A DNA stretch of 64,000 bases from Amphiscolops sp. MND2022 (Eukaryota), in the NCBI GenBank assembly GCA_964187785.1, contig OZ076413.1:71424001-71488000 (forward strand), written 5' to 3'. A program made the translations under genes and the position numbers. Positions within the stretch are counted from its first letter, which is position 1. The number at the start of each line of letters is the position of its first letter. This document shows, in pieces, positions 2,301 through 48,012 of this stretch. Below the pieces are notes generated by a model. That model had not been told where the DNA came from. It saw only the letters and a list, made by a program, of their open reading frames with translations, and ran no database searches.

Positions 2301-2522
2301 TTTCTGAAGTGTGAACGCAAAAAGGTAGCTGTTTATGTATTTGTTTTTCATGGGCGGTAAATCCCCAGAAAAGATTTCGTGAAAATTTTCAAAGATTTGT
2401 TCCCCACGTGTTTTAACGAATACAAGATAAACTGAAGTTTCAATAATATGATCATCCGTAATACCATAATTTATAGAAATTTAGTATTTTGGACAATAAT
2501 TCAATTCACACTTTTCTTACAG

Positions 2523-2744
2523 GAGGCGGGTATGGATTTCCGTGTGATTGTAATGCATAGACAAGTCATTGACTCATTTCTCGTGTCCATCACAGTGAAG
2601 AGACACTTCGCTCCCTCGTTCGACGCCAACATAGTCACTGCATATCAGATGTTAACGTACCTTCTAGCCCAGATATCGGTCATTGACCCCAAATTCATAG
2701 CCGGGTGTTTCCACCTAGACATGGATAAAGAAGAGTTCTCTCAG
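2523..2744 (+). CDS. Host gene 1, penultimate exon
   Basis: Acceptor cacttttcttacag, donor CAG|GTCAGG, 222 nt, phase 0-0. EAGMDFRVIVMHRQVIDSFLVS resembles the sulfotransferase 3'-phosphate-binding strand (xIVLxRDPxxxxxS); family call from recall only. Confidence 0.72.
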
Positions 2745-2773
2745 GTCAGGCTTGTAAAATATTGTATTGCAAT

Positions 2774-3152
2774 CACAGTTTTGACACCGCTAATCAGCGA
2801 TTTAGCGAATTAGCGGCCGCGTGTGAACTTTTCAGCGATTTCATAAGCGATTCAAAATAGCGGTAATTAATGGAATGTCCAAAAATTAATTTTGCTAAAA
2901 GTATACACGTTTCAAAAAGGGGTTTCAAATTGAATTTCGAAAAATTCCAACTCACCCTTGTAAAAGCCACTCAGTATGGAAAATTTCAGTCTATTTTTCT
3001 CGGAAAAACACTGAATAAAGTTATCAATTAATTTCGAAATATACTTGAAGTCAAACATTTGTTAGTTTGAAGAAAAATGTTTTCAGCAAATAGCGAATTT
3101 TGAATTAGCGGTTTAGCGAGTAGCGAAAACAATTAGCCATGTCAAAACCCTG
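2774..3152. mobile_element. hAT-type MITE in an intron of host gene 1
   Basis: TIRs cacagttttgacaccgctaa / ttagccatgtcaaaaccctg; 8-bp TSD attgcaat/attgcaag (7/8). Confidence 0.8.
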
Positions 3153-3241
3153 ATTGCAAGAATATTTAAAGTTTTAGAGTTGAAAAATGAAAAATTGCGA
3201 TTATGTTTTGCGCAATAATTTATGCTATAAGACTTTCTCAG

Positions 3242-3451
3242 GTCATGAACAAGGTCGATCACGCCCTGAACACGACTTTGTTCAGCACTCGGATGGTCAA
3301 CAACTTCCGACAGCATTCGTCCAACTCGTGCATAAATGAGTCACAGTTCTCGGAAGTGTGGATGCAGAGGTTGATTGAGAAATGGGACGAGATGAGAAGG
3401 TTTTGTTACCAGTTCGTCACTCAAAAACCACCTGATCAAGTTTCTATGTGA
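3242..3451 (+). CDS. Host gene 1, terminal coding exon
   Basis: Acceptor gactttctcag, phase 0, VMNKVDHALN...KPPDQVSM then TGA at 3449-3451; in frame with the preceding exon. Confidence 0.72.
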   Translation, partial: VMNKVDHALNTTLFSTRMVNNFRQHSSNSCINESQFSEVWMQRLIEKWDEMRRFCYQFVTQKPPDQVSM

Positions 3452-3639
3452 TCAATTATTTCAATGACGTCACTTCCTACTCTATCAGGTGATAGGGAGT
3501 TTAGCTGCTCGATAATAAAGCCGAAACAATTTATAGCAGAACCGAATTGAATTCTCAAATGTGATTGGTTGCTCCGTTCGACAGTGAGCTTTGAATGATG
3601 AAACTATCATGCAACTTCGCAACCAACCACAGTGAATTT

Positions 3640-4288
3640 TGAAAATCGCCTATTTTTGTTTATATCTCAATCAATTTTATTGGAATTTTGAATGCGTAGG
3701 GGCGATTGTGGATGTTTTTGGTTCTTAGGTTATCTCTATAAATTTCTTGAGAAAGTAAATTTAGTCAATTGATGATAACAAAATTGTTAAGAAAAGTTTG
3801 GTTTAGAACAACTTCAAGGAGATTTCACTTTTAATTACAATTACAAACAAACTTACATTTCAGTAGCTGAGGAGTTGATGAATTTAAGCTTACCTTTAAA
3901 ATTCGTCTATAATTTTTTTTGTTGAATCTGCATCTTTATTAATTTATTGCACAGCAGGGGAATGCAGGCAGAGCATCTGCACCAGTAAGGAGTGAGGAAA
4001 AAATTTCTCTCCAATTCTCATGCTCTTTTTAATAAGTTTTTTAAATAAATTTAAGAAGCGCCCCAAGGTAATTAATAATCACACACAATATGACTGAAGT
4101 ACTGCTGTCAAGCTGCACAAAAGGGGATTAATATCTTAAAACCATTATATTGCTCTCTCGAGAACTATTAAACAAGTTGTGCTAAGAAATAATAAACAGC
4201 GAGCTGTTTTAATAATTTAATTTCCCAGTTTGCATCTGTTCTTTTATTCGCCTTTCGCTCCTCCTGTAGCGGTGCTTCGCTCGCTACA
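3640..4288 (-). repeat. 3' LTR of gypsy-1
   Basis: On the minus strand starts TGTAGCG directly after the PPT and ends GGCGATTTTCA; homologous to 12886-13522. Confidence 0.85.
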
Positions 4289-5385
4289 CCACCCTCTCTC
4301 TTGAAGATTGCGTCCACGCAACAAAGAGGACAGCCATTCGCGGACATGCGGGTCGCAGTCCATGCAAGTCTGTAGGCCCTTTTGCGCACATCGGACACCT
4401 CGGATCCCACAACACTGGTAAATCCTGTCGAGAGTCTTGTCTATCAGTATAATACGAGTTTCTGTGATCGTCGGCACCAGTTTGGCGACCGCTGGGGAGA
4501 CAGTAGTGTTTTTGTCCGGGTGGATCAACCGCAGCAAGTGGCGGGCATTTTCCTTCAATTCGTCGGTTGTTGAGGTTCGCGGACTACACAGGAGATGGAA
4601 CAAGAGGTTGTTGTCAACATAGTCCAGTGATGGGGGGGGTAGGTAGACATCTGATAACAAAGCATTTTGGCGGTTACCTGATGATTGCTGAGGGCCGCTG
4701 TTTCCAGTGGTAAGGAGTTTAGCTCATCACTCTGCTTTAATGAGTGGCGGAGTAGCGACTCGTTTTCTTCCGTAAGGGTTTTCAATCGGGATTTCAAGAC
4801 CTCTATTTCTTGGTCCATAGCCGTAATGCGCTCCGCCCGTTGACGACCCACCTCTACACTCTCTTGCATCAGTTTGAACGTGACTTCAGAGGCCTTCTGA
4901 GCTTCTTCATTTTCATGTTTGAGCTCTTGGACTGAGCTGAACTCTTCTGCCAGTAACTCAAGACTCTCGTCCTGCCCTAAGGAGGCCTCCACAGTCACAT
5001 TAAACATATCCGGGTGCACTGGGGTGACACTGGTGATGGACAGTCGCACTCCATGGGGACTGGGTCGAACTTCATTGGAGTTAATCTTTTGGATCAAGAC
5101 TGTTTGGCGTTGTGGGTTACATCAGATGACACGGTAGTCCATTACATCTAACATACAGACGATATGACCACGGGCCAGATAGTGTACCCGCCCATCCGAG
5201 AGCAGGAATGAAGCTGGAGGCACGACCGCGGCGTCAAATTTGTACCTGTAACAAAACGGATCATTAAAAACGACTTCCATAAGGGTGCATGTGTTTAGAT
5301 ATAATTGAGAACATGTATTTGAATAACGATTCAGACGTTGGGCGTGACTTTCGGCGTTGATACACCAGTTGCGTTGGAGGTACAA
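4244..5385 (-). pseudogene. Accessory ORF of gypsy-1: coiled coil plus DnaJ J-domain (one stop, one frameshift)
   Basis: ORFs 5122-5385 and 4555-5097 share a frame across one TGA and shift into 4244-4660. The latter encodes LFHLLCSPRTSTTDELKENARHLLRLIHPDKN...ITETRIILIDKTLDRIY (HPD motif, J-domain spacing, about 4415-4600). Confidence 0.65.
4289..4302 (-). promoter_or_regulatory. Polypurine tract of gypsy-1
   Basis: Minus strand AAGAGAGAGGGTGG immediately 5' of the LTR TG. Confidence 0.8.
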
Positions 5386-5806: not shown

Positions 5807-6882
5807 TTAGGTTTTTATTTCCGAAAACTGAAGGGCTGACACATCCGGGTAAACACGTGGGGGGAGAAAAGGTGCTTTAGGTGTAGTGTAGTTCGAGTTA
5901 GGAGCGATAGGTTGTTTAGTTGTTTCTCGTGCCAGGGAAATAAGTGCTTGAAACTCCATTGTAGTCAGATAAGCAAAAGTTGGATCCATTGGTTCGTAGT
6001 CATAACTTTGGTCATCAACAATGTTGATGAAGCGTCCTGATTGACCCCAAAAGAACTGTGGATGAGTGAAGAAGCGGCGCCACTGTCGTCGGAAGAGCGT
6101 GAAGCATATCGAAAATTTTAACAGTGACATTGTAATCGACAGGGTCGACATAAGAATAGCTGTTCGAATGGGCAGATAAGACTCCAAGGCTGCTGACGTG
6201 GCTGGCGAGACTGCTGAGTAGTAGGTAGCAATTGGTTGCGTCAACTTTTCGAGGGTTTCCTCAGTCATTTGTTCAACGTCTGGTAACTTAGCTAGTTCCA
6301 GGCGTAAACTACCTAGGACGGGATGACGTGCTTCCCCGGAGAATAAGCATGAAAATCAGCGGTACTAATCGATGGGACATGCGAGAAGACCTTATTAAGT
6401 TTCTTCAATGGAAGCCAGAAAAGACTTGGAATTCGTTTCACAAAAATCCATATCAGGGTACAAAACGAGGTCCTCTTGAATAAATGAAATATCACTATAG
6501 CAACTGGGGCGCATCACACAAGCCTGACAATTTATGGTAGAGATAGACAGGCTATAGCTCGACTATCGTTCTTTATCTGAAGATAAGGGGCTCTAGAGAT
6601 GATGTGGTACATCCCTTCGGCCAAATAGAAGACTTGAGGAGCATCCAGCAACCGAACGGATTTAACTTCGCAATTTCACAGGGCTGGAATATCATAGTTA
6701 GAGAAGAGAGAGCCCAGGCATAACAAGGTTTCATCCGTGGTAGTAGAGAAGCCATTCCTGCAAAGTTTTATTCTTCTGTTACCCGAACATTGCTGCAGCG
6801 TATTAGCTTCTAGCTGTGCAAATCTACTATTGTCTGTGAAGACTGCGAGGAACGGATTTGTGAAACTGAAAAGAGAAGCTGT
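5807..6882 (-). pseudogene. env-like glycoprotein, C-terminal half
   Basis: Cys-rich segments (LQQCSGNRRIKLCRNG, LLCLGSLF, NCEVKSV, NCQACVMRPSC) across stops and frameshifts, then a TM helix (TAILMSTLSITMSLLKFSICFTLF) followed by RRQWRR. Located downstream of pol. Confidence 0.55.
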
Positions 6883-9800
6883 TTTCTGTTGAGGATTACA
6901 TCGCTTTTGGCATTCGACGCAACGGCGCACAAATATTTGCTCGTCATCTTTGAGACCGGGCCTTCAAACGCGCTGTCTCACTGTTCCAAGAAGCTTGGCA
7001 ACTCTTAGGTGACCGACGGTGGTTGAACTGTGTAGCGATTCCAGGACATCATCTACCAGTGCAGGAGGCACTACTTGTTAGAGGAACGGTAAATCGCCAC
7101 CGGTGGGTTCAAATCGCCGACACAGTACATCATTTATGAGGTGCAGACTGTGAAATTGGTTATACAGCTTCCAAGCGAGTTCGGGACAACCCTTCAAATC
7201 ATTATTTTGTGGTACGCGGCCTCTTCGGATCCACTCGCGTATCAGTTGTAACGATTCATCAGCCTCCTGTCCTTTGCGGAGGTTTTCGGTGAGATTACCG
7301 GTCTCTGTATCGGACGCTTCGTCAAATGCGCTTTCCTCATTGTTCGAAACAGCTGTGGATGGATCACGGATGTAAACGGTTATGCGAACAACCGAGGTTT
7401 CGAAAATTCTTTGAAAAATGTCGCGTACCAAGGGCCACTCCAATTGGTCGAGTCCACAACCAAGTTGTGGAATGCTAATCGAAGGCACGCCGTTTGCTTT
7501 GGCATGTTCGCGCATACGTTCCAACGACGCTCGACGAGCCGAATATGTCGGTTTATGGTAAAAACGATCTTTCGCCAGGAGGTGGTAAATATACCTCTTC
7601 GTTTCCGGTAGCCACTGCGTCCACAGAGGGACATCATAATAGCGGACTCGTCCCGGATACGCAGTTATGTATTTCCGTTTGATAGACCGCGCTATTCCAG
7701 AACTCATTTTGAAATTCGCGAAGACACAATGGGCTATTGAGTCCTTTGAGTCAAACAAGTTACCCGTGATCTCGACGTACTTCGTCGGTTCCGTTGCTCT
7801 TTCTACGGGTACGTCCTGTCGTTGTAAGGATTCCGATGGCTTGGATTTGGTCACCCTACACTGGGAAGTTAGATGTTGAAAGACATCCTCCGGAGGGGAG
7901 CCGACGCGGGCGGTGTGTCATTGTAATGCCTCGTTGTGTTGGCATTAGGCCACTCCCCTGTTGGTGCGATCCCCGCCGGTTGGTGGTCTTCTGAGACGAA
8001 CAAAGCAGGTGTTGTTGGAATTCGAGAGTCCTCCGGCATGACCGATGGAATTCCCAGGTCGGTATTCACCTTCGTAGTCAAATTGGGCCAGTTTTCCAAG
8101 CAAGCGTGCTACAAGACCATCTGGGTCTTTGAAGTTATGCAACCATCGCAAGGCACTGTTATCAGTTCTCAGGATGCACTTTTGGTCCAACAAGTAATGT
8201 TTAAAATGACGCGTGAAATGTACAACCGCCAGGAGTTCACGTTTAGTTGCTGAGTAGTTCATTTGAGATCATGAAGAGCCTTGGAGGCATAGCAAATAGC
8301 TCGTTCCTTTCCGTCTTGAATTTGGGCTAAGACTGCACCCATTGCCGAAAGGCTAGCGTCGGTGTACAGAATAAACAGCTTTCATAGAAGGGAAAGCTAA
8401 AATTGGTGTTGTAGTTAAGCAGACCTTCAACATGTCGAAAGCATCTTGTGCTTCGGGTGTCCATTTGAATGGGGTACTCGTCTCGCTGGCCTTATGGAGT
8501 GGTCTTGCAATATCGGTAAAATGTTTCACATATCGTCGATAGTTCGAGCAAAGTCCCAGAAAGAATTTGACATGAGTTTTTATTGTCAGAACTGGGAACT
8601 GTCTGACGGCAGCAATTTTCTCGGGGTCCACCAGTAGACCATCTTTACTAATGTCATGGCCCAGGAACTGTACTTTTGTTCTGAAGAATTCACATTTCAG
8701 AGGATTAATTTTCAGATTCGCTGCTCGGAACCGGACTATGACTTCTCGAATCCTACGGAGATGTTCTTCCGGTGTGGTCGCAAAGATGATACAATCGTCT
8801 AAATAGGGGACGACAGTTTTCCAGATCAACGTTGAAATAACTGTTTCCATCAAACTTTGAAACGTAGGCGGACTGTTCGAAAGACCCATTGGCATTCGGA
8901 ACCATTCGAAGGAACCAAACGGCGTACTGAAAGCCGTATAATCCTGACTTTTATCATCCATGGGTATTTGATAGAATCCCCAAGACACATCGGTTGTTGA
9001 AAAAACGCGCTTCTCTCGAGCGTAGGGAAATTTCTTCAATCGACGGTATCGGCCAACAGGACTTTATCGTTTGATTGTTCATTTGTCTATAATCTATTAC
9101 TAAACGTAGCTTGCCATTTTTCTTCGGTACGAGTATTGCTGGTGCGCTGTATGGACTTTTACAGGGTTGGATGAGTTGTTCATCCAAGAAGGCATCTATT
9201 TTTCTTGCAAATCTTCCTTGTAGTGCAATGTCATGCGGCGATTCGGTAATTTTATCGGTTTGGAGCCAGGTAGGACATCTATTTTGTGACTAGTGGCGTC
9301 ACAACGACCTATGTCCAATTGATTCTTCGAGAATACATCTTCAAATTCATTGACAAGGTCCCCGAATTGTTTTTTTTTATTTCAGTGGTATTTCCGCACT
9401 GACGAAGTCAATCACTTATTTCAAATCATATGCTTGGTCAAGTGTCTCGCTTCCCGTCACTTCACTTTTCGGAGTAATGTTGCTCCTCAGGGCATTAACG
9501 GGAAGAATTTCAGAGGTGCCCAATGTCGTTTTCTCATAAAGTGTCAGTTGTTTTCCACAGTCACGGGTATTGTTTGCTCGGACTAATTAAACAGAATGTT
9601 TGTAGCCACTGCCTCTTTTGCTCGTCGAACCGATTATTCAGGTTAAATATAGCCTCTGTTTCATGGTGCGATTGCTTCCAATCGAGTATAAGCGCAGGCA
9701 CTATCAACGAGTGACCTACCGTGACCGAAACGGTCTCTGATACAACTACCCGATATACAGAAGCCGTTTCATCATCGATTTCTCGATGATACAAGGGCAC

Positions 9801-10249: not shown

Positions 10250-11462
10250 TCTTTTTATCGGCGGTGCAGTCTCTTCGGAAGTGACCGACCTTTAGGCAAT
10301 TAGGCAATTGTAACACGCCCTACAATCCTTTGTTGTGTGAATACTGCGTTTGCAACGATCACACACTTTCTTAGCACTTCCCGTTGTTTTTTCATCTTTT
10401 CTTTTGGACGGATGAGGCAAGCTCTCTCAGTTTTGCGTTTGTTTCCCATTTTCGTTGTTTCGATAATTGAAGGATTTTTGGGTAGACTGGAAGCGGACGG
10501 ATGGGTTACTCTTATTAGAGTCGTTATTCTCAGAACGGGGTCTTAGATTTGACGGGCTATTGGTGCGCCTACCGTTCTCTTGAGGTGCGTAATCGCTGTT
10601 CTGCGGTCGGCTCCTCTGCAGTTCTTGCCGTAGCGTTCGAACAAAATCCGCCATTAGGTCATTTGTAGAGGTATCGTCAGTAAATGTCCTGTTGACAGGT
10701 TGACACGTTTTTGCACCACCACTTTCAATTTCTAAGAACAAGTTTAGTTCCATCGCTAAGGTTAAAGCCTGATCGTTTGTGGCTGGTTTGGCTTTTCGCA
10801 ACTCCCAACAGAGTGTCTCATCTCTTAGGCTCTCGATAAAACATGTCATCACCATTGGGTCGATCAGACCAGGCGTGTCTCGGTATGCTCGCCAAGCCAA
10901 TGTGCGCACAACACACAGGAATGCGGAGATGTCCTGGTTAGACTGCTGTTTAGCAGCCTCCAGCCTGGCTTCAAAATGTCCCCATTTGTCGTGTAATTCT
11001 GTCGAAAAGCGTCAATCAGCAAATCAAAGTTTGTTGGGCAGCGGACAGAGTTGCGTAGAAGTGGAGTGCATTTCCTCTGAGGCGTAATGCGAAGTAATTA
11101 GGACTATTATCGTGCGCAGTTGAGTACCAGCCTGACAAGAATGCTGCAGTGTTGAACTGTTGAAGGTAATCTTCTAAATCTCCCTTAGCCATAAACGTCT
11201 CCGGCATTAAGCATGAAGGGAGCGGGGCGATATTTGGTGTACTCGGAGGTGGACTAGACGTTCCTGGATAGTCAAAAAAAGAGGCGGTGGGGGTTGTCGT
11301 AGTATTCGCTGTGGTACTTCTGGAGGATGATGGGTGCCCTGGAGTAGCCGAGCTACTCCCACTGGCGCTAACACTGGCACTTGTTGTCATTGTTGCTAGC
11401 GGGGGTGTTGACATCGAGGCGATAGAAGTACTAGTATTTGACGGGGTAGACGGCGTTGTCAT
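10250..11462 (-). pseudogene. gag: gag of gypsy-1
   Basis: PETF...LEDYLQQF, FALRLRGNALHFY, LAWRAY, FIESLRD...ELRKAKP capsid-like motifs; CCHC knuckle CYNC/CLKVGHFRRDC disrupted by an 8-bp duplication. Confidence 0.82.
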
Positions 11463-11925
11463 TTGATATTGAACGTTTACAAATTTACGGAGTCTTTAGA
11501 GTCAATATGTTTTAGCGGCAGAGCATCGGAGTACTATAAAGAAAATTCGGCAAATGGCAGTCAGGAAATCACAACAAAGAGGAATCAGAGACGTGGGACG
11601 CAATAAATTCAATCTGCGAATACCAACTTTGAGCTGAATGCGGGAAAAAGGAGGCGCTCGATGACTTTACGCTTGTAGCGTGGTCCATAGGACTGTAAGG
11701 AGACTTTTCGTGAGTGTTTGTTTGCTGCCAGTAATGTACTGCCTGCAGCTGTAAATGGAACGCGAGTTGTTGCGCAGTGAAACGAACCTCCGGTCGATGT
11801 GGAAAAGGGATTTTAAATTTTTTTGTTTGACAAAAATAACATGGTATGATAAGGTTCTCTGACGGTACATTAGAGAATCGTCACAGGGATACTAAAAGAA
11901 TACATAGAAAACACAGAACTTGATT

Positions 11926-12195: not shown

Positions 12196-12864
12196 TGATG
12201 ATGTAAGTGAAATAAGAAGCACGTTATTTAGATTCTCAAAATCTAGAAAAGATTTGATGTATGAAGAAGAGCTAATACGGTTTACTAGTTCGTTGTTTCT
12301 CCATCGAAAGTTTCACATCCAGTAAGGACTCCTCTAAGTTCCTTGGAACCTGTCTTCAGCTAGTAACTCTAGACTGAAAACAGACTGCGCAGCCTTCCCT
12401 CATCAGCGCCCCTTAGGCTAATTTGGATTCTTATATTGGACACTATTACCTTCTGTGTCCAATAAGCTGCATCTGGTGAGGAGCACTATAATGAGACTGG
12501 CTTTCTCAGTGCCTAAGTTCAATGGAACATTTACTTTTACCGGTATATTTGAAAAATTTTAAAACAGTTCAAATTCGCTTCAATTCTCTCACGAGTTTAA
12601 ATCAGGTTAATGAAGAAACAAATTACCAGTTGACCGTTTTTTTTAGGCCCGACTAACCATTAGGTTTCCTAAGAAACGTGAAACTAACAAAAGAAAAGGG
12701 GTCCTTTTCTAATCAGCCGAGGAGGCGATTTTGAAAAGCCTACCAGGATCTTTGTACACTGTTGTACACTGCCAAGGCAGGCTAGGCTTTACATTGAGGT
12801 TTGGTCAAGGCCGGACATTACAGGTTGACAACAGTCTTGAAAAATCATTAAAATTTACTGTTTA

Positions 12865-12882
12865 TCCCACTCCTGTCACCCT
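12865..12882 (-). promoter_or_regulatory. Primer binding site, tRNA-Leu-like
   Basis: Minus strand GGGTGACAGGAGTGGGAT, 3 nt after the LTR-terminal CA; resembles the complement of eukaryotic tRNA-Leu 3' ends (...AUCCCACUCCUGACACCA). Confidence 0.75.
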
Positions 12883-12885
12883 TTT

Positions 12886-13522
12886 GACAATCGCCTATTT
12901 TTGTTATACCTCAATCAATTTTATTGGAATTTTGAATGCGTTGGGGCGATTGTGGGTGTTTTTGGTTCTTAGGTTATCTCTATAAATTTCTTGAGAAACG
13001 AAATTTAAAAGTAAATTTAGTCAGTTTATGATAAATTGTTAAGAAAAGTTCGTTTCAGAACAAATTTAAGGCGAATTTACTTTTAGTTACAAATTACAAA
13101 CAAACTCACATTTCAGTAGCTGAGGAGTTGAGTGAATATAAACTTCCCTTTAAAATTCGTCTATAATTTTTTTGTTAAATCTGCATCTTTGTTAATTTAT
13201 TGCTCAGCAGGGGAATGCAGGCAGAGCATCATTCTTTTTCTCTTTCTAATAGGTCATTTAAATAAAGTTAAGAAGCGCCTCAAGGTAAATAATAATGGAC
13301 ACACAGTTTGACTGAAGTGCTGCTGTTCAGCTGCACAAAAGGAGATTAATATTTTGAAACCATTATTTTGCTCTCTCGAGAACTTTCGAGAACAATAAAT
13401 AATGAACAAGTTGTGCTAAGAAATGATAAATACCGAGCTGTTTTTATTATTTAATTTCCCAGTTTGCATCTGTTCTTTTATTCGCCTTTCGCTCCTTCTA
13501 TAGCGGTGCCTCGTTTGCTCAG
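12886..13522 (-). repeat. 5' LTR of gypsy-1
   Basis: Homologous to 3640-4288; outer end degenerate and abutted by a MITE. Confidence 0.82.
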
Positions 13523-17204: not shown

Positions 17205-18734
17205 CAGGGGTGCCTAAAAATAAATGGCCCTCCATTTTCGAGAAAAAAAAACAATGCAATCCATTAATGGTAAATTATCAAATTTTCCCTCCTTATTTCC
17301 ATTAATGGCAATTAATTTCGCAATTTGAAAGTCATTTAAAGCCTGAGAAACTAAATTCTCATCCCAAAATTTTTCGTTGACCTTTAAGAATAACTGCATC
17401 TCTAAGTTCATTGGCAAAAGTTTTTGTCGCAAATCTGAGAAGGAATAAGTTGCAGAACTAAAAAACCGTTCCAGAATATTCGAAGTAGGCAGTAAAAATT
17501 TTAGACTCTGACACTTTTTGAGACGATAATTGAAGTCTTCGTTTTTTTATCAGCAAACTGGCAAAATCACTATCAGAACCTTGGGAATTCGATCCTTCTG
17601 GCTGCTCGACAACTTGTTTTTTCAATTTTTGGACACTCTGTGCTTCTTCTGTTGTTAACGATTTTTCATCGCCATTTAAAATTTTAACGACTGCTTTTTC
17701 GAAAAAAGGGGAATGATAAATTTTTGAGTTTGGCCCACAATACTCATCAAGAACCGGAAATTCTAAAATAGCGTGATCAAAGAGAAATCGTACCTCTGCT
17801 AAGTCAAGGTCTGCTTTTTGAAGAGACTTCGTGATAGAATCCAGTTTTTGAAGGGTCACATGCAGTGTACTTATTTCATGTAGGTGCGACGGTACAAAAT
17901 CCGACAAAGAAGGGTCATCGTAGAAGTCCGTGGGGGACACCAGGCTATGAATTTCAAGAAATCTGCTGACCATCTCGAACGTACTGGACCATCTTGTCTC
18001 ATTTCTTTGAATTGGGCGAAGTTCTGTGAATTTTCGTAGTTTGCCGGCAATTTTCAGGTTTTTCATTTTTGCCGCTAGGGCGTTAATTTTTTGAAGAATA
18101 GTTTCATACGGTTCTAAAATTTTTTTGCTTCGAGATACTTTTTTAAAGTTGGAACGGTTATTGGGTCAAGCTTTGTAAACTCCCGGGTTAGTGGGTTCTC
18201 GACGAATTCAAATGGCTTCATGCTAAGACATACCCATTTAATCTAAGAAAAAGCATTTCTACCTTTTTTGTTGACAATACATGGTTGTGATGTGTCTCTT
18301 GCATCGGCGTAGTCGGGGTGGGCTCCTTTGATATGGTTGAATAAGTTCGAGTAGCCTTTGTTCGTTTTTTGTTGAATAACTTTTCCGCATTTACATTTCC
18401 AATGATCTTCTCTTTCTCTAGTAAAATAGCGCAGGCTTACTGCTTTTGGAGTGAGATTTGCTTTAGCGAACTCCATTGCAACGTATTTTTAAGTACAAAC
18501 TTATATCTGAAAGAACAACTTATTTGTGGCGTAGAATTAGTCTTATTTTTGCAGAGAAGTATCTCTTAGAAATGCATCTCTTAGAACTAGGTTTTTCTCA
18601 GAAATGGGCAATTAATTGCAATAGCTTCCGTCCATTAATGGAAATGGTAAAAATAAAAAAATCCCTAAATTTACCCTTAAAAATGGTAAAAAATGGCCAT
18701 TAATGGAAGTTCCATTAATATTTAGGCACCCCTG
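17205..18734 (-). mobile_element. hAT DNA transposon, internally deleted
   Basis: TIRs CAGGGGTGCCTAAA, perfect 8-bp TSD AACGTATG. BED finger (WKCKC...LFNHIKGAH), TRWSST motif, LPTSNILERFFS and LFLKVN dimerisation motif in broken frames. Confidence 0.92.
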
Positions 18735-21017: not shown

Positions 21018-21992
21018 TTAGTACTCTACCAAATTTCCCTCATTCTCAAAACACAAAGCCAAACGTCTGGAAACTGAATTCATCAATTTTTCACGCACAT
21101 CATATCCAATTTTTTGTTGAGATTCTTGGATAATGGCTATTAATTCTTCCTTAGTTTGAGGATTCCGCTTTTCAACAAAGTCTTTCAAAATTGTCCAAAC
21201 ATTTTCTACTGGGTTGATGTCAGGAGAATTCGGTGGCCATTGCAGAATCTAGATGTTGTTTTCCGCAAGGAATTCTTTGGTTTCTTTCGACGTATGAGGT
21301 GTTGCTCCGTCCTGCTCAAGTACCCAACCATTCGTATACAAGGCATCAGCATACGGCATAAATTCAGCTACAATTTCGCAATATTTCCTGCTGTTTATTG
21401 TTCCATCTACAATAATGTTTAAGTAAAAACCATTGAAGGAAAGTGCTCCCCAGACCATCTCTTTTGGAGAAAATTTTGGTGCTGCTATTTGTGGTCGTCG
21501 TTGGGACTTGGTACACCAAACCTTCACTTTATTTCGGTGCAATTGGAAAAGGCATTCATCGCTTAGAAAAACATCAGCAAAATGGTAATTTTTCCAATGT
21601 CCGGCAAACTCTAACCGCTTCCGGCGATGGGCATCTGTAATTAAAGGTACCGTTTTTGGCATTTTCTTCTTAATTCCTCCTCTTGCAAGGGTTCGTCGAA
21701 TAGTACTGGCATTCGCAGAAATCCCAGTCTTCTCATACATCATTTCAGCCAAGTTTTGTCCCGAAAAAGTAGAATATTTTAAAGCCAATTGTGCCAGTCT
21801 TCTTCGCTCATCTCCACAAAATTTGTGGGGTCGACCACTTCCTACCTTTCGTTTCAATGAACCTCCTTCTTGTAAAATCTTGAAATTGCGATAAAAGGTA
21901 GATGAAGGCATTCCTGATAGCTTTAGCAACAAATTAAATTCTTTAGTAACATTGTTGTAGAGATAATCAAGTGTTTTACGCTTGGGTTGCAT
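21018..21992 (-). pseudogene. Tc1 DD34E transposase, one premature TAG
   Basis: HTH, SGRP, FLSDEC, VWGAL, QDGATPH and WPPNSPDINPVENVW motifs; D-34-E spacing counted; 325 codons with a single in-frame stop at 21249-21251. Confidence 0.93.
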
Positions 21993-23328
21993 TTTACCGG
22001 AAGTGTGAAAAAGTATGTGTGTTCACGCCAAATCTAGTGCTCGTATATGAATTTTTGTTACATGGCCAGAAAGGCCGGGCAATTATCTACAACTTTTGTT
22101 TCTGGCGTTTAAGCCTAAGTGGCGTCCATTAAAAAATACGGCACAAAAATGAAAGTCTTCAAATTCTCATTTTTTTTGCCCGGAGGTATATTATGGATCG
22201 CTGATTTCACTTTCATTCAAGAGGAATGACAGAAAGCTTTTAAAACTGATCTAATGTTCGACAGAACAAGCGGGAACAGAATAAGTCGGGGCCCGACGTA
22301 AGGCTCTAAAAGAGCAAAATTAACTCAAATGCCAAGAATTCTTTTTCAATAAGTTCTCTATTCCACAAAACCAAAAAATCCAAAGGGGGACTTTTTGGAC
22401 TCTTTGGACTTAACTCTTTGGACTTTGGTTTAGTTCACCAAACGGAAAAAAAACACGATAGAACGTCACAGCAGGAGTAGCGGTTTATTTCATGAAGCGC
22501 TGACTAAAAATGTCAAAAGAAGACGAATGAATAGACAACAAGACGCCCGCTAAGCACCGGGATATTTTCCGCCTTCTTCGCCTTCACCAACTGAGCCATA
22601 GGTCTTTTGGGAGGGGGAATATGATTTAAAGAACAAAATCCGAAATTTAGTGATTTTCGATCTTATTCCCTTTAGATCTCATTCCCATTTTTGAATTTAG
22701 ATAATATTCCCCCTCGAAGCTATTTTAGTTCCTTGATTAGTTCACTAACTACTAATTTTACTGAAATTACTAGTTTTACTATTTTACTAATGTTACTATA
22801 AAATAGTCAAGTAACTATAGGTGAGGTCGAAGAAACTGGGAGATTTGGCAGAATTTGGAAAAAAACGCAACACAGATTATGATTTTCCTTCCCCATTATA
22901 TGTGGGTGGAAAATAACAAGAAATATACTAAAGTGACTTGGACTAAATTCTAGTTGCCAGATAAACTTCCGAAAATGCACGCGAGAACATAGCCAAAAAC
23001 AGTGCAAAAGCCTTGATAGGAAGAGAATGCCGCCTAGTCAAGCTAGTGCAGAGAGAGCGATAGAATCTAGTGACTGAGGGAGTGCGATTTTATTTTCTAA
23101 TCAAAAATCCAATTACCAGTAATGATCGGCTAGGTGAAACAGTTGGAAACCAACTCTCAAATCTTTTGAATTTCAGAATTTTTGTTTCGATCCATATTTT
23201 TTTTGTTGACTCTGTCAGTTCGTCGGTGTTCAAAATTAAACAAAACTCATTACTATAGTCTGCTTTTTGTACGAAAGCGAAAAGACATGCATCTAGAGTT
23301 TTAAAAATAACTGTCCTCTGTTTGGAAC

Positions 23329-26895: not shown

Positions 26896-27354
26896 TTAGC
26901 TTCTGCTTTCGAATAAGTTCCTGCGGTGACATAGTAGTTTCAAGAAACGTGGTGCCTGTAAAGTCTTCAAGTGATAACATGAGCCAATGAGGTACCTCAA
27001 AAAAAAACAATTTTATGAGAATCTGACATTTTCACCGTGAAAAGATGTTATTAGTTTTGTGTTTCTTATTCTGGTCGATCCATCGATAAGTTTTTCCTGA
27101 GTATAAAATTGATACCATTGATTTTTTTTCAGTGAAACATCTTTGAAAAGTCATTGAAATAAATTTGTTGTCTTTGGGACATTTTGTACTTTTCGCAGCT
27201 TATTTACGTAGCTTTAGAAGTTTTTTCTGAATGTTCGCATGTTTTGTGATGTGCAGGTTTCCCAGAATAAAGTGTTTTCCTTACGTGGGGCTTTGCAACT
27301 GATCTCTGATAATCTTGTGAACAACAAATGACTCGACGTGTTAGTGAAAATTCA

Positions 27355-30300
27355 TGTCACTGACGTGATTCATCAGCAACTGAAATACTTTAAAACTGCC
27401 AATGCTTTCATGATTGTTCATGCTTCGAGCTGGATAGTAGTACATTGAACTGAATTGTAGTACGTTGACATTAAACTCAATTGAAGTAAAAGAAGTCAAT
27501 CTTTTACATTTTGGCGCTCCTATAAATCCTTCTCCAACCTTCAACGCCGAGTTTTTTCTGCTGCTTTCTGCACCCTTCTCCACTGTTAGTGTGTTCCAAT
27601 TTCTTGAGCAAAAAGAAATCAACCCTCATTTCCCTTCTCTGTTTTGGAAGAAAGACTACAGACAGCCTTTTTTCCGTCTTTTTTTCTACAAAAAGATCTC
27701 TTCAACAGTAAAGTCAAAACCCTCTTCAGCAGTTTTTTCGATGGCAAAGCCAGCTACTAGCTTCCAAAGTTTCGACTACCCAGAAACAACTTCTTCAACC
27801 TTTCGCCTTTTTTCACCTTTACCCTTGCTGCACTGAAGAGAGTGCTAGGAGAAAAAAAACAAACAAAAAAGGTCATTTTTAGGAAAACTTTTGGTCATAG
27901 TTTTGGTTCTGCCTTTTCAAGTAGCGATCTTTAATACAAGAGCGGTGTGAATAAATTTAAAAGACAAAAAGTAACGAAAGCACTTTACAAGGCCACTTTT
28001 GCCTAGGGGCTCAAAAGAGCCCTCTTTCCAACGCCGACCGAAAGTTTTTCTTTTTCATCGCTGAGTTTAGGAATAGCTTCGTCCAGTTTTCGTCCTGTTG
28101 GATCTAGCTGCGTCCTGAACAGGTAAGTAAAACAGAGTCGCCGTTCCGTTCCGTCTTCTAGGTCTTTTCAGCCTTTTTGTCGGTTCCCTTGCGGTTCGCT
28201 CGGTCCGTCTTCGCTCCTCAAAACAGCGATTCCACTAGCTTCAACCAGCGGTATATTATTCATCTCTCTCATTGTATTCTTTTCGGTCGTGGTTGCGAAT
28301 CGAACGGTTTATTTGTTCCGTAAGTTGTCTCTTACCATTCTTTGTGTCAACGCAGCAGAGCTTCAGTCAAAAGATTGTCCTCCATCGAAAGATTCACCCA
28401 GCTTTTCTACAAACAACAACCAACCACAGTGCATCAAAGCTGACAACTTCTTCGCGCCAGTTTCAGCAACCAGAATGGGAAATAAAAAGGAACAAACTTT
28501 GCTCAATCGCTTCCGACTGGAAGAGCGATTGTTTGAGAACACACTAAAATCTTTGCAGCAGAATGTTCTTGACAACCAACCAGTTCATGTTCTGAGGACA
28601 ATTCTCAGAAATCTTTCTCATCGACACCAGCAATTGACAGATATTACCCAGCAGCTTACAGGTTTCCTCGCCAACGACGCTTTGGAAACTCTTTTCGACA
28701 GTATGTCTCGAATCTCAAGTGAGTTCGAGAACGCTGAACTGCAAGTTTCTCTCAAAGAAACAGACCATCATCTACCAACCCGAAGCTGCAGTACCGCCAG
28801 CCGCCAGTTTCAACAAAACTTCTGTAACGAATATACTGACTTCCCACCGGTATCACCTCCACTGAGTCAGTCACAACAGCAACCGCCGTTACCAATGGAT
28901 CAAACAGCAGGTTCTGTCTTTCCCACAGCCGCATGCCAGCTCCAATCAGTAGTGGAAGCCTCCACTACTCCAGCAGTCACTCTTTGTTCGAGTGAGCCTA
29001 CACCCATTGTCACTTGCGGTAACCCATTTGGCACCTTGGCTACAAGGGTACCACCTGTTCTTCCTCAAACTCACCGCCAAATCTCAGCAGTGCATCCTTT
29101 CCAAACTGATGACCGCTCCAAAGCTCACCCTCTTGCAGAAAATACGTATCTCGTTCCACCGAACCCCGCATCGGTTATGCAATTGCCGTTCGACTGTCTG
29201 GCCCCTGACCGTACGCCACTCGAAACTCAGTCCAACTTGATTTAAGCGAATACTTCGCCAGTTCCTCACATCTCACGTCTTGCTCCGACTGAATCGTCCG
29301 TGCCTGTTCTCGTCTCTCGCTTACCCAATTCGTATCAGTTTAACCAGCCCCTGCATACCCGCAGCAATTTTCTGCCGGTCCCGCCATCACAGTTTAACCA
29401 GTTTCGATTTGTCTCCCAGCAGCAACTGCCGCACGCTACCGTCTCGTCCACTACTTCAAATATCGCATTTGTGCAAAGCAATTTTTTGGCAGCCCTTCCG
29501 CCTACAACTAACGATCCGGTATTTACCGAAAGCCTGTCGCGCCCGTTTCCGAACCCAGAGCCGTTCCCTCCTTCCTCCATTACTGCTGCAACATCTTTTG
29601 CCGCAACATCCCATCCCGCTCCGACCAATGCTATATCAACAACATTCGATGGTTTCTCGCATCCGATCGCTTCCACATACCATCCAACTCTCCAGCCGTC
29701 AACATACATTCCGACACATACACAACCACCAGCAATTAAACGCCCGCCTCTGCAATTACCCATGTTTGACGGTGACCCACTTCAATACCATGATTGGATT
29801 AACACTTTCAAGGCAACAGTCCATAGCAACATGTCTATCACAGACACTCGCCGAATAACCTACCTCCAAAATTCATTGAGGGGTCCAGCCAAAGACTTAA
29901 TCAAAGGTTATTCGTACAACCCCACTTTCTACGCAGCAGCACTTGCTGATATTGAGAAACGGTTTGGTGACGCCGACTATATCGTCGCGTCTTACATCGC
30001 AAAGCTGGAAAGCTACCCACAATTTCCTCTGCATGATGCCAAATCCATCACTACCTACAACACGTTCATCAAAGAATTCACTCGAATCTTCTCCGATCTT
30101 GGTTTTCCTTCCGACTTAACGTCTTCCACTGTCCTTCGCTTAGCCAAAGACAAACTCCCGAAACAACTTCTCGTCAAGTGGACTGAATACACCATCCAGA
30201 AGGCAATCGCCAAGCCCAGTCTACTTCATTTCCAAATTTGGCTGGAACTCCAAACTGCAGTGTATGACAAACTCAACCTGCCGTCCTCCTCAAAAACTCA

Positions 30301-33300
30301 CGCTTCGTCTTTTAAACCCAAATCTGACTCTGGTGATTCCTCGTCCCGAGATACTAATTGGAATTCAACAACACAAAGAAAACATCCACCGTCTTGTCCA
30401 TTTTGTAATCTTGACACTATGCATCCAGTTGCCCAAAGTATCGCGATGCCACTCCGAAGCAACGTTTCAATTTCGTCAGAAATCATAACCTTTGCCTTAA
30501 CTGTCTTGGTAAAGATCACATGAAATCTTCGTGTCCGTCCAAAAATCGATGTTCCAAACACGATTGCAGTGAACTTCATCACACGACACTTCATGAAGCC
30601 TTCAACCAACCGCATACCCGATCTCAGCCTGACCAAGAATCAAACCGAAACACCTCCAATGCTACTCGTGTAACAGAACTCAACCGACAACGACCAATCC
30701 GATCGCCACCAACTGATCCCCCAACTCGCCCGTCACAGTTCAACGCCACTGCCTTGAATCGGAAAACGGAAAATTCCCGAAAGACCTGTTTTCAGTCCTT
30801 CAAATTGTCCCCGTTTCAGTTATCAATGATGGCAAAGTCTTCGATACCTACGCCCTCATTGATCCAGGAAGTACTGGTACATATATTCTAGATCACATCA
30901 CGAAAATCCTCAATTTGAAAACCAGTGAAACCTTTGACTTGGATGTACAGTTTTTGAGTTTCTCCCGCTCAATATCCGTCTCTTCGACACACTTTCTTCT
31001 CGTCCCCTACGATGACCATGAGAAAACTTTCCCTGTTCGAAACGTCTTCTCCACTCCCAGCATCAAACTGCCCCCCGCCGACACAAAGGAAATGAACGAA
31101 ATATGCCAACAATTTCCTCAACTTCGACATATAAAATTCCCCGATATCGACAAAAGCAAAATCGGAATACTCCGTGGTACAGCTTGCGTGCAGTTCACCC
31201 ACGCACTGGAATGGATTCGCGGTGCTCCCAATTGTCCCGCCGGAGTTCAAACAGAACTTGGGTAGACCATTGCCGGTGAATTCACGCACCCAAAAAAGAA
31301 AAAACTCACCTCCAGGTGTCACCAAAAGTTCTTTGCCCCACACTCGCCTTCTCCCGAAATTCAACCTTCAACTGATGTGCTAGAAAACTATTGGGCTATC
31401 GAAAAAGCCGGTTGTGAACCCGCTATCGACAAAAAGGTGTCGCTTGAAGACAAAGAAGCCCTCCGCATCTTGAATGAAACTTGTCGTCACAATGGAGAAC
31501 GCTATGAAATTGGGCTCCCTTGGAAATCTTCCGCAACGTTTCTAAATAATTACTTTGCCGCCGTCAGTCAAGCCCGTATTTTTGAGAAACGTCTGAGAGA
31601 CAAACCGATTGTCTTACAGAAATACAAGGAAACTCTCACTAAAGATCTCGCCTCGAAATACGTCGAACCTGTTACTAAACAATAACCCCCTCCTGATAAA
31701 ATTTGGTATCTGCCAACACACCCTGTTGAAAATCCAAACAAGCCAGGAAAAATCCGTCGCGTCGCGAATGCAGCCTCAAAATTCAAAGGCTGTTCTCTCA
31801 ACACTTGTCTTCTGACCGGACCTGAACTTTTGGCCGACTTGCTTGAACTGATTCTCCGTTTTCGCGAACACGCCATCGGTGTCCTTGCTGATATCGAAAG
31901 CATGTTCATGCAAATAGCAATCCGTAAAGAAGACCAGTCAGCCTTACGCTTTGTATGGTTGGAAGACAATTCATTTCGCCAGTACCAATACATCCGTTTA
32001 ATTTTTGATGCTAATTGTTCGCCGTGTTGCGCAATTTTCGTACTCCAAAAAAACGTCCTCGTGCGAGGCGGGTTCCGTCTCACGAAATTCCTATCTAACA
32101 ACGCCGCCGCCATTAATCATCTTCCAGAATCCGAGAAAGAAACGCCCGTTCAAACGACCAGAGTTCTTGGTCAGACTTGGTGTCTGACTGATGACACATA
32201 CACCGCTCCTCCATCAAAGCCCGTACCCACGCCGACAACTCTACGCCAGCTTTTCAGTCTTGTCTCGTCTATTTTTGATCCCATCGGTTTACTAGCGCCC
32301 TTCGTCGTTCAATTTAAAATTCTTCTCCAGTCTCTTTGGAAACGTGGACAGAAATGGCATCAAATGATTCCGAATGACCTTCACACGATCGTAGTTAAAC
32401 TCGTCGACGAATATCGGAACCTGCCTCTAATTTCCGTCCCGCGTCAACTTTGCCAGCCCTGTACTCCCGTCCAGTTACACGTTTTCACAGATGCCTCGAT
32501 TTCAGCATTCGCCGCCGTCATTTACGCCCGTCCGTCGCATACGGCTCCGAAATCCGCTACAATGACATTCGTACTCGGAAAAAGTCGCGTCGCCCCTCTC
32601 AAACAATTAAGCGTCCCGAAACTTGAACTTGACGCCGCTCTACTGGGAGTTCGTCTACTCCAAGTCGTTCGCATAGCTTCCGATCGAAACTTTCCGTGTG
32701 TTACTTTCTGGACAGATAGTTGTGTTGTGCTCGACTGGATCCAAAACCAGAAAAAACTCAAAAGTTTCGTTGCTCACCGAGTCAACGAAATTTCCCGCTC
32801 TTCTGCCCCTTCGGATTGGAGGTATGTTCCATCCAATCTAAATCCAGCCGATCACGGCACAAGAGGTCTGAAATCAACAGATATCACCGTGAAATGGACA
32901 AAAGGTCCAAGATTTTCGACAGAAAACGCTCAACACTGGCCAGCGAGGCCAAACAGCTCGTCCGCCGACATTTGCGCATTCGCGAGTGCTAAGTATCCGC
33001 CCGTCCTGCTTGACGTTCGCCGATTTTCGTCATGGCTCCGCTTGTTTAAAACGACGGCACAAGTCATACGTTTCGTTCGCCGCCTACGCTCTCGAAATTC
33101 TGATACAGGTCTAATTACCGCCGATTTCCAATTTGCCCGTCTTCTGCTCATCCGGCAGTCACAAGCTGAGTCGTTTTCGTCAACCGTTGCCCACCTTAAT
33201 TGCAACCTTCGTCCATCTCCGCAAGATAAACTTTTGCCGTACAATCCAGTCCTCGATGATCAAGGAATCCTTCGTTCTGCCGGCCGCCTGAAATACGCAC

Positions 33301-34701
33301 CACTCCCGGAATCAACACAACTTCCCATCATTCTGGACGCTAAGAATCCCCTCGTGAAACTTCTTGTTGAGCATTCCCATGCCGTTTGCCACCGCGCCGG
33401 TCCGGAATACGTGAAAGCTTTCCTGCAACAACGTTATCTGATTCGTGGAGTTCGTTGCGCGCTTCGAAGCGTAAGTCACAGATGTTTAGCTTGCCGCCGT
33501 TTTCGCGCCGAAAACATTCAACTTTTCATGGCTCCGCTACCTCCTTTCCGCTATCCGTCACCAGATGCGCCTTTCCCTTTCGCTCAAACAGGTATCGACT
33601 TGTTTGGACCCTTTTTTATCGTCAATGGAAAAAAGCTCGAAAAGCACTACGCCATCACCTTCAACTGCCTGGTTACTCGCGCTTGTCATCTTGAGTCATG
33701 TCCTTTCATGACTAGTGACAGCTTCCTCAACGCTTTTCGACGATTCGTTGCCAGGCGAGGACAACCGCAACTTCTAAGATCTGACAATGGTAGCAATTTT
33801 GTTGGTGCTCGACGTGAATTGCAACAATCCCTCAACGACAGCATAAAAAACGTCTGTGAGAATCTTCCTGAGTCCATTGAAATGCGATGGGACTTGAACC
33901 CACCTTTTGCCCCACACTTCAGTGGTGTTTGGAAAAGAATGATACGAACAGCTAAAAGAACCCTCCTGATCATTCTTGGCTCGAAGAAACTGACACTCGA
34001 TTTTTTCCAGACAATTTTAACTGAAACCGAACTGATGCTGAACTCTCGACCACTTGCTCATGTAGCAGACCAACCCGATAACGAAAGACCCCTCACACCC
34101 AATCATTTTTTACTTCACCGACCGTACGCAAACCTGCCACCAGGAATTTTCAACGATACGGAGGAACCCCTGTCCTTCAAGTAATGGAAAGACGTTCAGA
34201 AAGTAATGAACCATTTTTGGGACAGATTCCTCAAGGAGTATCTGCCCACTCTTCATCATCGCTCTAAATGGAATCAAGACCAACATCCTCTCCAAGTCGG
34301 GGATATTGTGTGAGTCCTCAAAGATTTGACCCCCCGTGGAATCTGGCCTCTGGGACGAATCGTCTCTCTGCACCCTGGTCCTGATGGAATAACCCGTGTC
34401 TGTTCAGTGGAAACAGCTTACGGAACATTCGAACGACCCGCCGTTTCTCTTTCTCGCGTTTTCGCCCCGTGACGGCTCGCTCCGCAATTTCAAATTTGCC
34501 CCTCCTCCTCTCTTCTTTGCAGCTCGGGGGGGGGGGGGGGTGAAGCATGTCACTGACGTGATTCATCAGCAACTGAAATACTTTAAAACTGTCAATGCTT
34601 TCATGATTGTTCATGCTTCGAGCTGGATAGTAGTACATTGAATTGAATTGTAGTACGTTCACATTAAACTCAATTGAAGTAAAAGAAGTCAATCTTTTAC
34701 A
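27355..34701 (+). mobile_element. BEL/Pao LTR retrotransposon (decayed)
   Basis: 154-bp LTRs TGTCAC...TTTACA at 27355-27508 and 34548-34701 (3 mismatches seen), 5-bp TSD ATTCA, PBS TGGCGCTCC at 27512, G15 PPT. Confidence 0.95.
28289..34471 (+). pseudogene. BEL/Pao gag-pol
   Basis: DUF1759-like PMFDGDPLQYHDW, Cys-His knuckles, protease YALIDPGS, RT fragment lacking YxDD, RNase H VFTDAS, integrase GIDLFGP/SDNGSNF, WPLGRI; many frameshifts and stops. Confidence 0.92.
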
Positions 34702-35241
34702 ATTCAAGGAAATGTTATTTATTGGCAGTCCTTCAAGCATTACTGGTTGCCTTCAACAAAAAATGAAATTCTATATAAAGTAAAAAAAAGCTTCTTTCAT
34801 TCAACATTTCTTCCCAAAAGAAAAAAAACTACCTAAATTGAATGTCAATTTGTTTTTGTTTTGCAACATGAACTGCTTCAAAACAAGCTTAATTCAGCTC
34901 AATTTGGCAACATGCTCAAGGTTTAAAAAGTGCAGTCTTTTAAAAATGACCTTTGCGTATTTTCTCGAACTTTCAGCAAAAAAATCAAAGCACCGGCAAA
35001 TTTCCAGAAGCAATCACTGCTGGTTACATGTAGTAATGCATATTGAACGCACGATTAATTTATTTTGCAACCATTTCATTTTGATATTAACGAAAGCAAA
35101 TGCTGATAATATTCATCCGCGAAAATAGACTGACAAATTATTATATCAAGCACGACTTTTGCGGTTTTTTAGTCGGCGCTTCGACGAAAAGTGCCTGACT
35201 CTTACAGTGGGTAGTTTTTTAGCCGCATAAGGTCCACTTTT

Positions 35242-35658: not shown

Positions 35659-35949
35659 CCACTTTTTTCTTCAGTTGTTCAACTACGTTCAACACATCGG
35701 AACCTCGTCCAAAACAAAAACTGACGTCCAGAACCTTGAAAGCGTACTAAGGATCCAAACTCTGGCTACCTTGGTGTTTTTACTTAGATTTTTTTGGCAA
35801 TGAGACTTTTTTGATTACTATTGTAGTAACTTTTTTTCAATCCACGAGAACTGACCAAAATAGTTCTACAGTTCCACAACTTTTTATGGTCCCAAATTGA
35901 ATCATTTGGCCTAGCGAACTGAACCAAAAAGGTTTTTCTTTTTTTTTCC

Positions 35950-39145: not shown

Positions 39146-39170
39146 AGCCACGTCTTCGCTTCGGGGACTA
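39133..39170 (+). promoter_or_regulatory. -1 ribosomal frameshift signal (A AAA AAC plus stem-loop)
   Basis: Slippery heptamer 39133-39139 in the gag frame just before the stop; the -1 frame is open into pol; downstream GTCTTCG-ctt-CGGGGAC hairpin. Confidence 0.75.
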
Positions 39171-44508: not shown

Positions 44509-44830
44509 ACTTCCAATATGAATTCATGAAATGGTACACCTACTACTCACTCAATTGACCTAAAACTGACTCAAATCCCTACAACTCGTCTACGCACTCA
44601 AGGAAAAACAATACAAAGAGCCAAAAATATACTACAGACTCTCCATGCCCACTACGGACAAATATATCCATTCCCTTTTCTTTGGCTGCAATACTAACTA
44701 CATTTGATTAAAAGACTTCAGCCCATTCAACAACATACATAATACAGAACAAAGTAGACAAAGTGCCAACAACAATAAAGACCAAACTATAAAGATACAC
44801 AGTTCAACGTTCCAACAAATTATGAAATCA

Positions 44831-47454: not shown

Positions 47455-47582
47455 CTAAACACACAAACAAACCAATACACCGAAGCATACACTGATAGAA
47501 GACAACCAGTAATGTGAGAACAGACCAGGCGATAGATCAACCAACAAACACATAAATAAACTCAAATGCAACGAAAACTAAC

Positions 47583-47708
47583 GTTTTGACAGACTACGAT
47601 CATCTTCCCGTTTCTGACTCCGTTCCAGTCGAACAGCAGCCTGCCCGAAAGCCAGCACTTGTGAGGAGGACAGGCACACCGCTCCAGCTGGGATATCCGA
47701 GAGACCCG
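47583..47708 (-). CDS. Antisense gene exon 4
   Basis: Acceptor ggtttctttag|CG, donor AAAC|GTTAGT, 126 nt phase 1-1, open (AGLSDIPAG...REDDRSLSK); joins exon 5 in frame. Confidence 0.62.
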
Positions 47709-47805
47709 CTAAAGAAACCAACCAGAATGAGACACAAGCCTACAGAGCATACGAAGAAGGACATGGAAATAAAGCAGCGAAGTTCATAACGCCAATAATA
47801 GTTAC

Positions 47806-48012
47806 CTTTCTCCCATTCATTGTGGAGGACTGAACGCTCCAGACCTACACTAGGCCGAGAATGCTGGGTGCGCTCCCGAGATTTCCCAGAAGAGGGCCCG
47901 GGTTCGAAAGCAACAGTGCCACCCACGCTGGCAGACGTCCCGCAAGTCACATCGCCAGAAGCTGGACCAGACTCATGGTGAGTACCCGCACCACGCATCG
48001 GCGAAGCATTAC
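47806..48012 (-). CDS. Antisense gene exon 3
   Basis: Acceptor ttgttttccag|GT, donor AAAG|GTAACT, 207 nt phase 1-1, S/G-rich. Confidence 0.65.

Follow-up and report, generated by a model that had tools for sequence, protein, structure and literature searches.

The window, a 64,000-nucleotide stretch of Amphiscolops sp. MND2022 DNA, holds a decayed Ty3/gypsy copy with an envelope gene, arranged in the order LTR-gag-pol-env-ORF4-LTR on the minus strand. ORF4 follows env, encodes a J-domain, is under purifying selection and is inherited together with pol and env. We regard it as virtually certain that ORF4 is a real gene under selection. On balance, and with some reserve, we favour a reading in which this conserved fourth gene is expressed by splicing and encodes a soluble adaptor for recruiting host Hsp70 to some target, the element's own RNP being the most likely one.

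The LTRs, primer-binding site, polypurine tract, gag and a pol ordered PR-RT-RH-IN identify the element as Ty3/gypsy. Its parts in the window are as follows (^ marks a predicted splice junction).

12882-13519, minus strand: 5' LTR with slight erosion of its outer end; matches the 3' LTR at 89-94% identity in repeat pieces, the two LTRs being about 90% alike
13104-13111, minus strand: predicted splice donor AT^GTGAGT within the 5' LTR; same site in the LTRs of 7/7 sub-lineages
12864-12881, minus strand: primer-binding site, TGGTGACA.G.GTGGGAT directly after the 5' LTR; 12/12 siblings inspected
10300-11468, minus strand: gag, several broken frames; 84% DNA identity to sibling L034
6886-10254, minus strand: pol, broken; protease, RT, RNase H, weak Macro domain, integrase start
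5807-6897, minus strand: 3' half of an F-type env, in two frames; 65-74% identical to L033 env (788 aa)
5245-5262, minus strand: predicted ORF4 splice acceptor, a T-rich tract then AG^G, exon start at 5245
5026-5223, minus strand: ORF4 N-terminal SH3/KOW/Tudor-like beta-barrel, placed from a sibling model; broken in the window by a stop and a deletion
4696-4974, minus strand: ORF4 long helix, predicted coiled coil, from a sibling model and its heptad pattern
4410-4606, minus strand: ORF4 J-domain, with HPDKN at 4522-4508; profile and structure matches
4325-4409, minus strand: ORF4 Cys-rich tail (C-G...CxxC), from alignment A2
4308-4321, minus strand: short conserved hairpin, after the position of the ORF4 stop and ahead of the purine tract
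4289-4302, minus strand: polypurine tract
3637-4288, minus strand: 3' LTR, by repeat match to the 5' LTR, ends read
3856, minus strand: predicted splice donor AT^GTAAGT, the 3' LTR counterpart, from the sequence as read

This old copy lacks the integrase core and the 5' half of env, both lost in a deletion of about 2.8 kb at ~6886. Its ORF4 is damaged by a stop (5122-5124), an in-frame deletion (~5072), a frameshift (~4635) and the loss of the terminal stop (~4323). In L034 the gag frame matches the Pfam families Retrotrans_gag, Ty3_capsid and zf-CCHC. The RNase H-integrase interval gives a weak Macro-domain match (E 0.005, below cut-off) at 7417-7596 of the window and at residues 343-439 of L033 pol. 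The hairpin ahead of the purine tract has 6 bp, with two-sided change in three of six pairs (nine sequences, two rows seemingly misaligned). The window also contains a 13.6-kb Ty3/gypsy element (35949-50510) with near-identical LTRs, an intact 1828-aa pol frame and long antisense frames without Pfam matches (44831-48343); a BEL/Pao element (27353-34704; Peptidase_A17, rve); a Tc3-like transposase fragment (21249-22022); and a second transposase-like fragment without a Pfam match (17458-18165).

An earlier note on this DNA had described a J-domain gene downstream of env in an LTR element, with an HPDKN motif between a coiled coil and a Cys cluster. The position within the element is confirmed, and all three parts are present: HPDKN at 4522-4508 in the minus-strand frame 4244-4723, a coiled-coil-like stretch upstream (about 4974-4696) and QCCG..CMDCD after the motif. 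DnaJ is the sole Pfam match of the window piece (E 2.8e-4), scoring 21.3 bits against a cut-off of 27.8. Among 12 frames scanned, five lie above the cut-off with 31-40 bits, five lie below it and two have no match; the L137 frame is additionally above. Sub-lineages A, B, C and G are all represented above the cut-off. A profile search of PDB sequences likewise returned J-domains as best matches (DNAJC5, E 1e-9). The modelled domain has the four-helix J fold (helices at 238-242, 251-265, 275-292 and 294-312), and ranks 1-10 in Foldseek are J-domains or matches of J-domain length. In VIA structure comparison the top three J-domains score Z 8.1-9.3 with rmsd 1.9-2.4, the J-domain of ERdj5 giving Z 9.3 and rmsd 2.4 over 74 residues. 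In the Cys tail, C304, G307, C318 and C321 are invariant or nearly so (alignment A2). By profile and model, the ORF4 J-domain is genuine but divergent. The earlier note's proposal of an element-encoded J-domain protein finds support in profile and structure matches, in conservation and in selection. Two features go beyond that note: the beta-barrel at the N-terminus and the splice signals.

In the organism's own genome, 150 candidates were scored and 116 of them matched; the 30 best loci were analysed, 20 loci were extracted with 19 kb of context, and the sub-lineages sampled number seven (A-G). In 18 of the 30 best loci ORF4 stays open all the way from its N-terminal domain through the Cys tail. 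HPD, on whose conservation among copies the earlier note had staked its reading, is kept in 27 (the exceptions are two HAD and one QPD). It is also present in all seven sub-lineage representatives, while ORF4 protein identity to A is 26-54% across sub-lineages A-F. Among database relatives whose alignment covers the motif, 34 of 54 have HPD; many of these relatives are decayed, and six unrelated rows were excluded. Paired LTRs enclose 14 of the 20 loci with context, and several pairs are 99.6-100% identical; young elements therefore keep ORF4. The sibling layout is LTR, long leader, gag (~410-450 aa), pol (PR, RT, RH, a weak Macro match, IN), env (~790-810 aa), ORF4, hairpin, purine tract and LTR. 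A domesticated host gene is excluded by the 14 loci in paired LTRs and, for the remainder, by env or pol remains or decayed context.

The siblings also correct the limits of the gene. It had been taken to start at 5385 and to run through the polypurine tract into U3; it begins instead at the predicted splice acceptor (5245), and the run into U3 holds for the window's decayed copy only. In 13 of 13 siblings checked the frame ends before the purine tract, in 10 of them with the stop 35-56 nt upstream of the LTR, so the read-through is an effect of decay and is ruled out as a real feature. Intact sibling frames measure 326-360 aa from the acceptor and not roughly 370.

ORF4 dN/dS (Nei-Gojobori) is 0.11-0.20 in the six measurable pairs; synonymous sites are saturated in three other pairs, and no pair exceeds 1. 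Between A and B, dN is 0.36 in the barrel and 0.32 in the J-domain, compared with 0.62-0.71 in the coil and linker, making the barrel and J-domain the most conserved parts. Over the whole gene, ORF4 is the fastest-evolving of the four (A-B dN 0.47, against 0.19 for env, 0.28 for gag and 0.32 for pol). Between the B sub-lineages L035 and L037 the J-domain end was exchanged by recombination: up to the coil the two are near-identical (dS 0.04 for the barrel), and from the J-domain through the tail their synonymous divergence is saturated (dS 2.9 for the J-domain). Rapid phylogenies for RT, env and ORF4 all recover the groups (A,B) and (E,F) wherever these lineages were sampled, some forks being open or at support 80-89. 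The database relatives P0162, P0013, P0012 and P0083 have best matches in this genome of only 26, 45, 50 and 65%, respectively, and the ORF4 family therefore reaches other genomes. Phage records and IMG/VR contigs gave no ORF4 match, and best scores in the ESM Atlas are 0.78-0.79, which serve as leads only.

The conserved part of ORF4 begins without an ATG. Conservation starts at a T-rich AG^G acceptor in 7/7 sub-lineages and the window, the G being the third base of a codon; the chance rate of such acceptors is 20 in 36.5 kb, or ~0.5% per 30-nt window and phase. A donor, AT^GT(A/G/T)AGT, is present in the LTR of all seven sub-lineages: within mapped LTRs in A, B, E and F, at A's distance from the LTR end in C, and in a presumed 3' LTR in D and G. 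The seven are related by descent and do not amount to independent tests of this signal. It is very probable from these signals that the ORF4 start codon is built by splicing, the LTR donor, common to env and ORF4, supplying AT and the acceptor supplying the G. The env acceptors share the phase of the ORF4 acceptor; in lineages A and E they give A, not G, and env there has its own ATG a few codons downstream. According to the available parts of two reports, the start codon of Drosophila gypsy env is assembled by splicing in the same way, with AT from the 5' side and G from the acceptor in both gypsy and springer env (PMC2585583, PMC12992720). Unlike in those elements, as far as these sources describe them, the donor here lies within the LTR and is predicted to serve both env and ORF4 (PMC2585583, PMC12992720).

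The env of L033 (788 aa) matches Baculo_F with E 3.6e-5, below cut-off, and the lineage F env has no match. The L033 protein reads as having a signal-like N-terminus, an RQRR site, a hydrophobic peptide and a late hydrophobic segment. By sequence, the element belongs with the envelope-carrying (errantivirus-like) Ty3/gypsy elements. The env tails of A, B, C and F end in PPR[VI]YP (window ~5810-5860), and the ORF4 linker has a similar PP[RK][VI]. The tail motif resembles a late-domain motif. Binding of this tail by the ORF4 barrel was considered in view of the linker motif and set aside: env of families that lack ORF4 also terminates in YP motifs of this kind.

A genome-wide Pfam DnaJ search found paired J-domains ~1.1 kb apart that belong to a second Ty3/gypsy lineage (lineage 2, the ORF4 elements being lineage 1). 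Its RT is 43-49% identical to that of A and its env is gB-type (Monjiviricetes_fusion PF24664, E 1e-18). Lineage 2 carries two tandem coil-plus-J genes, each behind an acceptor and its own ATG, and their J-domains are more canonical (49-64 bits). The loci, most of them decayed, are L101-L113, L148-L152 and L167 (G000:C4:53.67 Mb, C5:54.01 Mb, C3:59.89 Mb and others). Full-length proteins of the two lineages match with probability 96, a score that rests on the coil and J-domain. Their N-termini, aligned with hhalign, reach a probability of 0.2-0.3, under the best of 100 column shuffles, and are alike by eye only. The best J-domain tree unites the lineages at support 44, which is compatible with one capture or with two. 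A locus at L147 (G000:C6:14.2 Mb) has an open frame of >1200 aa with a J-domain, unlike the retrotransposon proteins.

At 15 loci from other envelope families, neither lineage's J-gene profile had a match in the 9 kb extracted; a J gene is therefore not a general need of envelope-carrying elements. In one gB group, 4/4 scanned post-env frames contain a TRAF-type MATH domain, with Pfam scores above cut-off. High-copy gB-env elements have two post-env frames, the second being MATH and the first without a Pfam match; the loci of gB-env post-env frames are L161, L162:4647-5639, L164:4632-5528, L165:4731-5645 and L166:3753-4508. Unnamed post-env frames without Pfam matches lie at L154:3909-4754 and 2489-3493, L155:4020-4865 and 2616-3623, L156:4698-5342 and L163:3386-4639, and L154 and L155 have a 335-aa antisense frame in common.

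A structure model was built from a natural intact sibling frame (pLDDT 76, pTM 0.36); it gives the domains and not their relative packing. Their order is a six-stranded barrel, a low-confidence Pro/Cys linker, a 94-residue helix (116-209), the J-domain and a short tail. The heptad a/d positions of the helix are 54% hydrophobic. Modelled alone, the barrel reaches pLDDT 82, and its best fold matches are Spt5/NusG KOW domains (Z 7.2-7.6) and Tudor domains (6.7-6.9), with PWWP and chromo domains also among them. All are near-tied under Z 8, so a fold is indicated, not a function. Foldseek with the barrel returned nothing at E<=0.001, and in Pfam no family was matched by more than one of 29 members. 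The first 75 residues of ORF4 are net basic in A-F, and the protein has no signal or membrane segment (hydrophobicity maximum 1.22).

We propose that ORF4, folded as barrel, linker, long helix and J-domain, would dimerise through the helix and bind RNA or RNP through its basic KOW-like barrel, RNA binding being a guess from fold and charge. The J-domain would then trigger ATP hydrolysis by Hsp70 at the bound RNP, leading to particle remodelling in export, assembly or uncoating. If the Hsp70 link works, we put the odds that its target is the element's own RNP, and not a host complex, at slightly below even. Our choice of this target rests on the basic, KOW-like nature of the barrel and on the strong LTR splice donor, which would demand a means of handling unspliced RNA, by analogy with CERV for Cer1. 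Particle assembly or disassembly, the purpose suggested by the earlier note, is one of several possible Hsp70 targets.

The same barrel could instead bind a host silencing, chromatin or transcription complex that Hsp70 then dismantles, making ORF4 a counter-defence or host-control factor. The model for this is the polyomavirus T antigen, whose J-domain takes apart Rb-E2F together with Hsp70. Tudor, PWWP, chromo and Spt5 KOW domains among the barrel matches would suit such a role, as would the faster divergence of ORF4 relative to env, gag and pol, the swapped J-domain end in the B sub-lineages and the use of the same slot for TRAF-type MATH in other envelope families. However, the only invariant aromatics of the barrel in the alignment, Tyr37 and Phe61, are by sequence too few for a methyl-reading cage, ORF4 has no conserved nuclear-localisation-like cluster, and dN/dS above 1 is seen in no pair. 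We consider this reading, the main rival, unlikely.

Less likely again is that ORF4 no longer activates Hsp70, and binds it as a decoy or uses the J fold for some other contact. Tyr25, Arg26 and Phe47 of the KFK motif matter in other J-domains, according to the available part of PMC1906734. Arg/Lys26 is found in five of the seven sub-lineages (Asn in F, His in G), Tyr25 is retained in one of seven, and KFK in helix III is replaced by LVP-like hydrophobic residues and a conserved proline. Helix II is also weakly basic in C, D and F, with one Lys/Arg within positions 20-32. Against this, HPD persists while its neighbours drift, both in every representative and in P0012, P0013, P0015, P0083 and P0162. 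Tyr/Phe25 is retained by the basal members P0083 and P0162 and, together with Arg/Lys26, by the J-domains of lineage 2. A large hydrophobic residue at 47 can suffice, and Leu is tolerated elsewhere, in the text available from the same source (PMC1906734). Weighing sequence and model, we think that the ORF4 J-domain probably works with Hsp70. A reading of the frame as neutral cargo, or of HPD as a chance motif in decayed DNA, would fit a window copy broken in four places and is highly improbable. It is refuted by the low dN/dS, far under 1, in comparisons across sub-lineages whose synonymous sites are saturated, and it is countered by intact copies, conserved splice signals and tree congruence.

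The ORF4 J-domain is C-terminal, behind the barrel and long helix, and so falls outside classes A and B of the DnaJ proteins; ORF4 would be a class C J-protein. Such proteins pair a targeting domain with a J-domain that switches on Hsp70 locally. Host DNAJC5/DNAJA-type J-domains are its best sequence matches and share with it a YD.CG/YDKxG extension after helix IV. Unlike those proteins, ORF4 has no cysteine string, G/F region or client-binding beta-sandwich, and the tree singles out no host paralogue as donor of the J-domain. The parallel drawn by the earlier note with pestiviruses is loose, because their insertions carry the Jiv90 part of DNAJC14 and are not known to include its J-domain. 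Polyomavirus T antigen (PMC1906734), the baculovirus BJDP and giant-virus DnaJs resemble ORF4, as far as the sources extend, in joining a virus-encoded J-domain to a targeting module; BJDP is listed as an auxiliary gene in the available part of PMC5794183. These J-proteins, however, belong to DNA viruses, structural matches to them span the J-domain alone, and no barrel-coil-J order was found among them.

Among LTR elements, the literature searched (Repbase, Dfam and GyDB lay outside its scope) yielded no report of a J-domain or DnaJ gene and did not contradict the earlier note, which knew of none in Ty3/gypsy elements. Chary and Hayashi describe 'ancient errantiviruses' with three ORFs and an env of F-type or HSV/gB-type (PMC13524379, available text). 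Their elements are likewise gag-pol-env, with both envelope types and multiple young copies, whereas here a fourth gene, or two, follows env (PMC13524379, same text). In that text 'DnaJ' and 'J-domain' occur 0 times, as does 'DnaJ' in seven supplement files, the element sequences on GitHub lying outside this count (PMC13524379). The available text of PMC10309623 describes CERV of the C. elegans element Cer1 as needed to export unspliced genomic RNA. CERV resembles ORF4 as a multi-domain Ty3/gypsy accessory protein with a Cys motif and a spliced mRNA (predicted for ORF4), and differs in its env position, exons shared with Gag, H, G and M domains and lack of a J-domain, as far as that text goes (PMC10309623); no homology between the two is expected. 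Bdelloid rotifer LTR-element ORF3s (DEDDy, GDSL) are, in the portion of PMC5408684 available, captured host-like domains 3' of pol, as here. They replace env, whereas ORF4 follows it, and 'DnaJ' and 'chaperone' occur 0 times in that paper (PMC5408684).

With ORF4, a group recently characterised as gag-pol-env gains a fourth gene under selection, and the post-env region is marked as a slot for adaptor genes, filled by a J-domain in two lineages and by TRAF-type MATH in others. More tentatively, invertebrate env-carrying Ty3/gypsy elements may be 'complex' in the way that lentiviruses are, with one LTR donor feeding env and accessory genes and with J-domain adaptors recruited more than once, in F-type and gB-type elements, to aim Hsp70 at the RNA particle or at host silencing. 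As a small soluble protein, ORF4 allows a direct test of the Hsp70 link. The usual view is that retroviruses and LTR elements borrow chaperones from the host; with a J-domain encoded by the element, they would be able to direct Hsp70 themselves.
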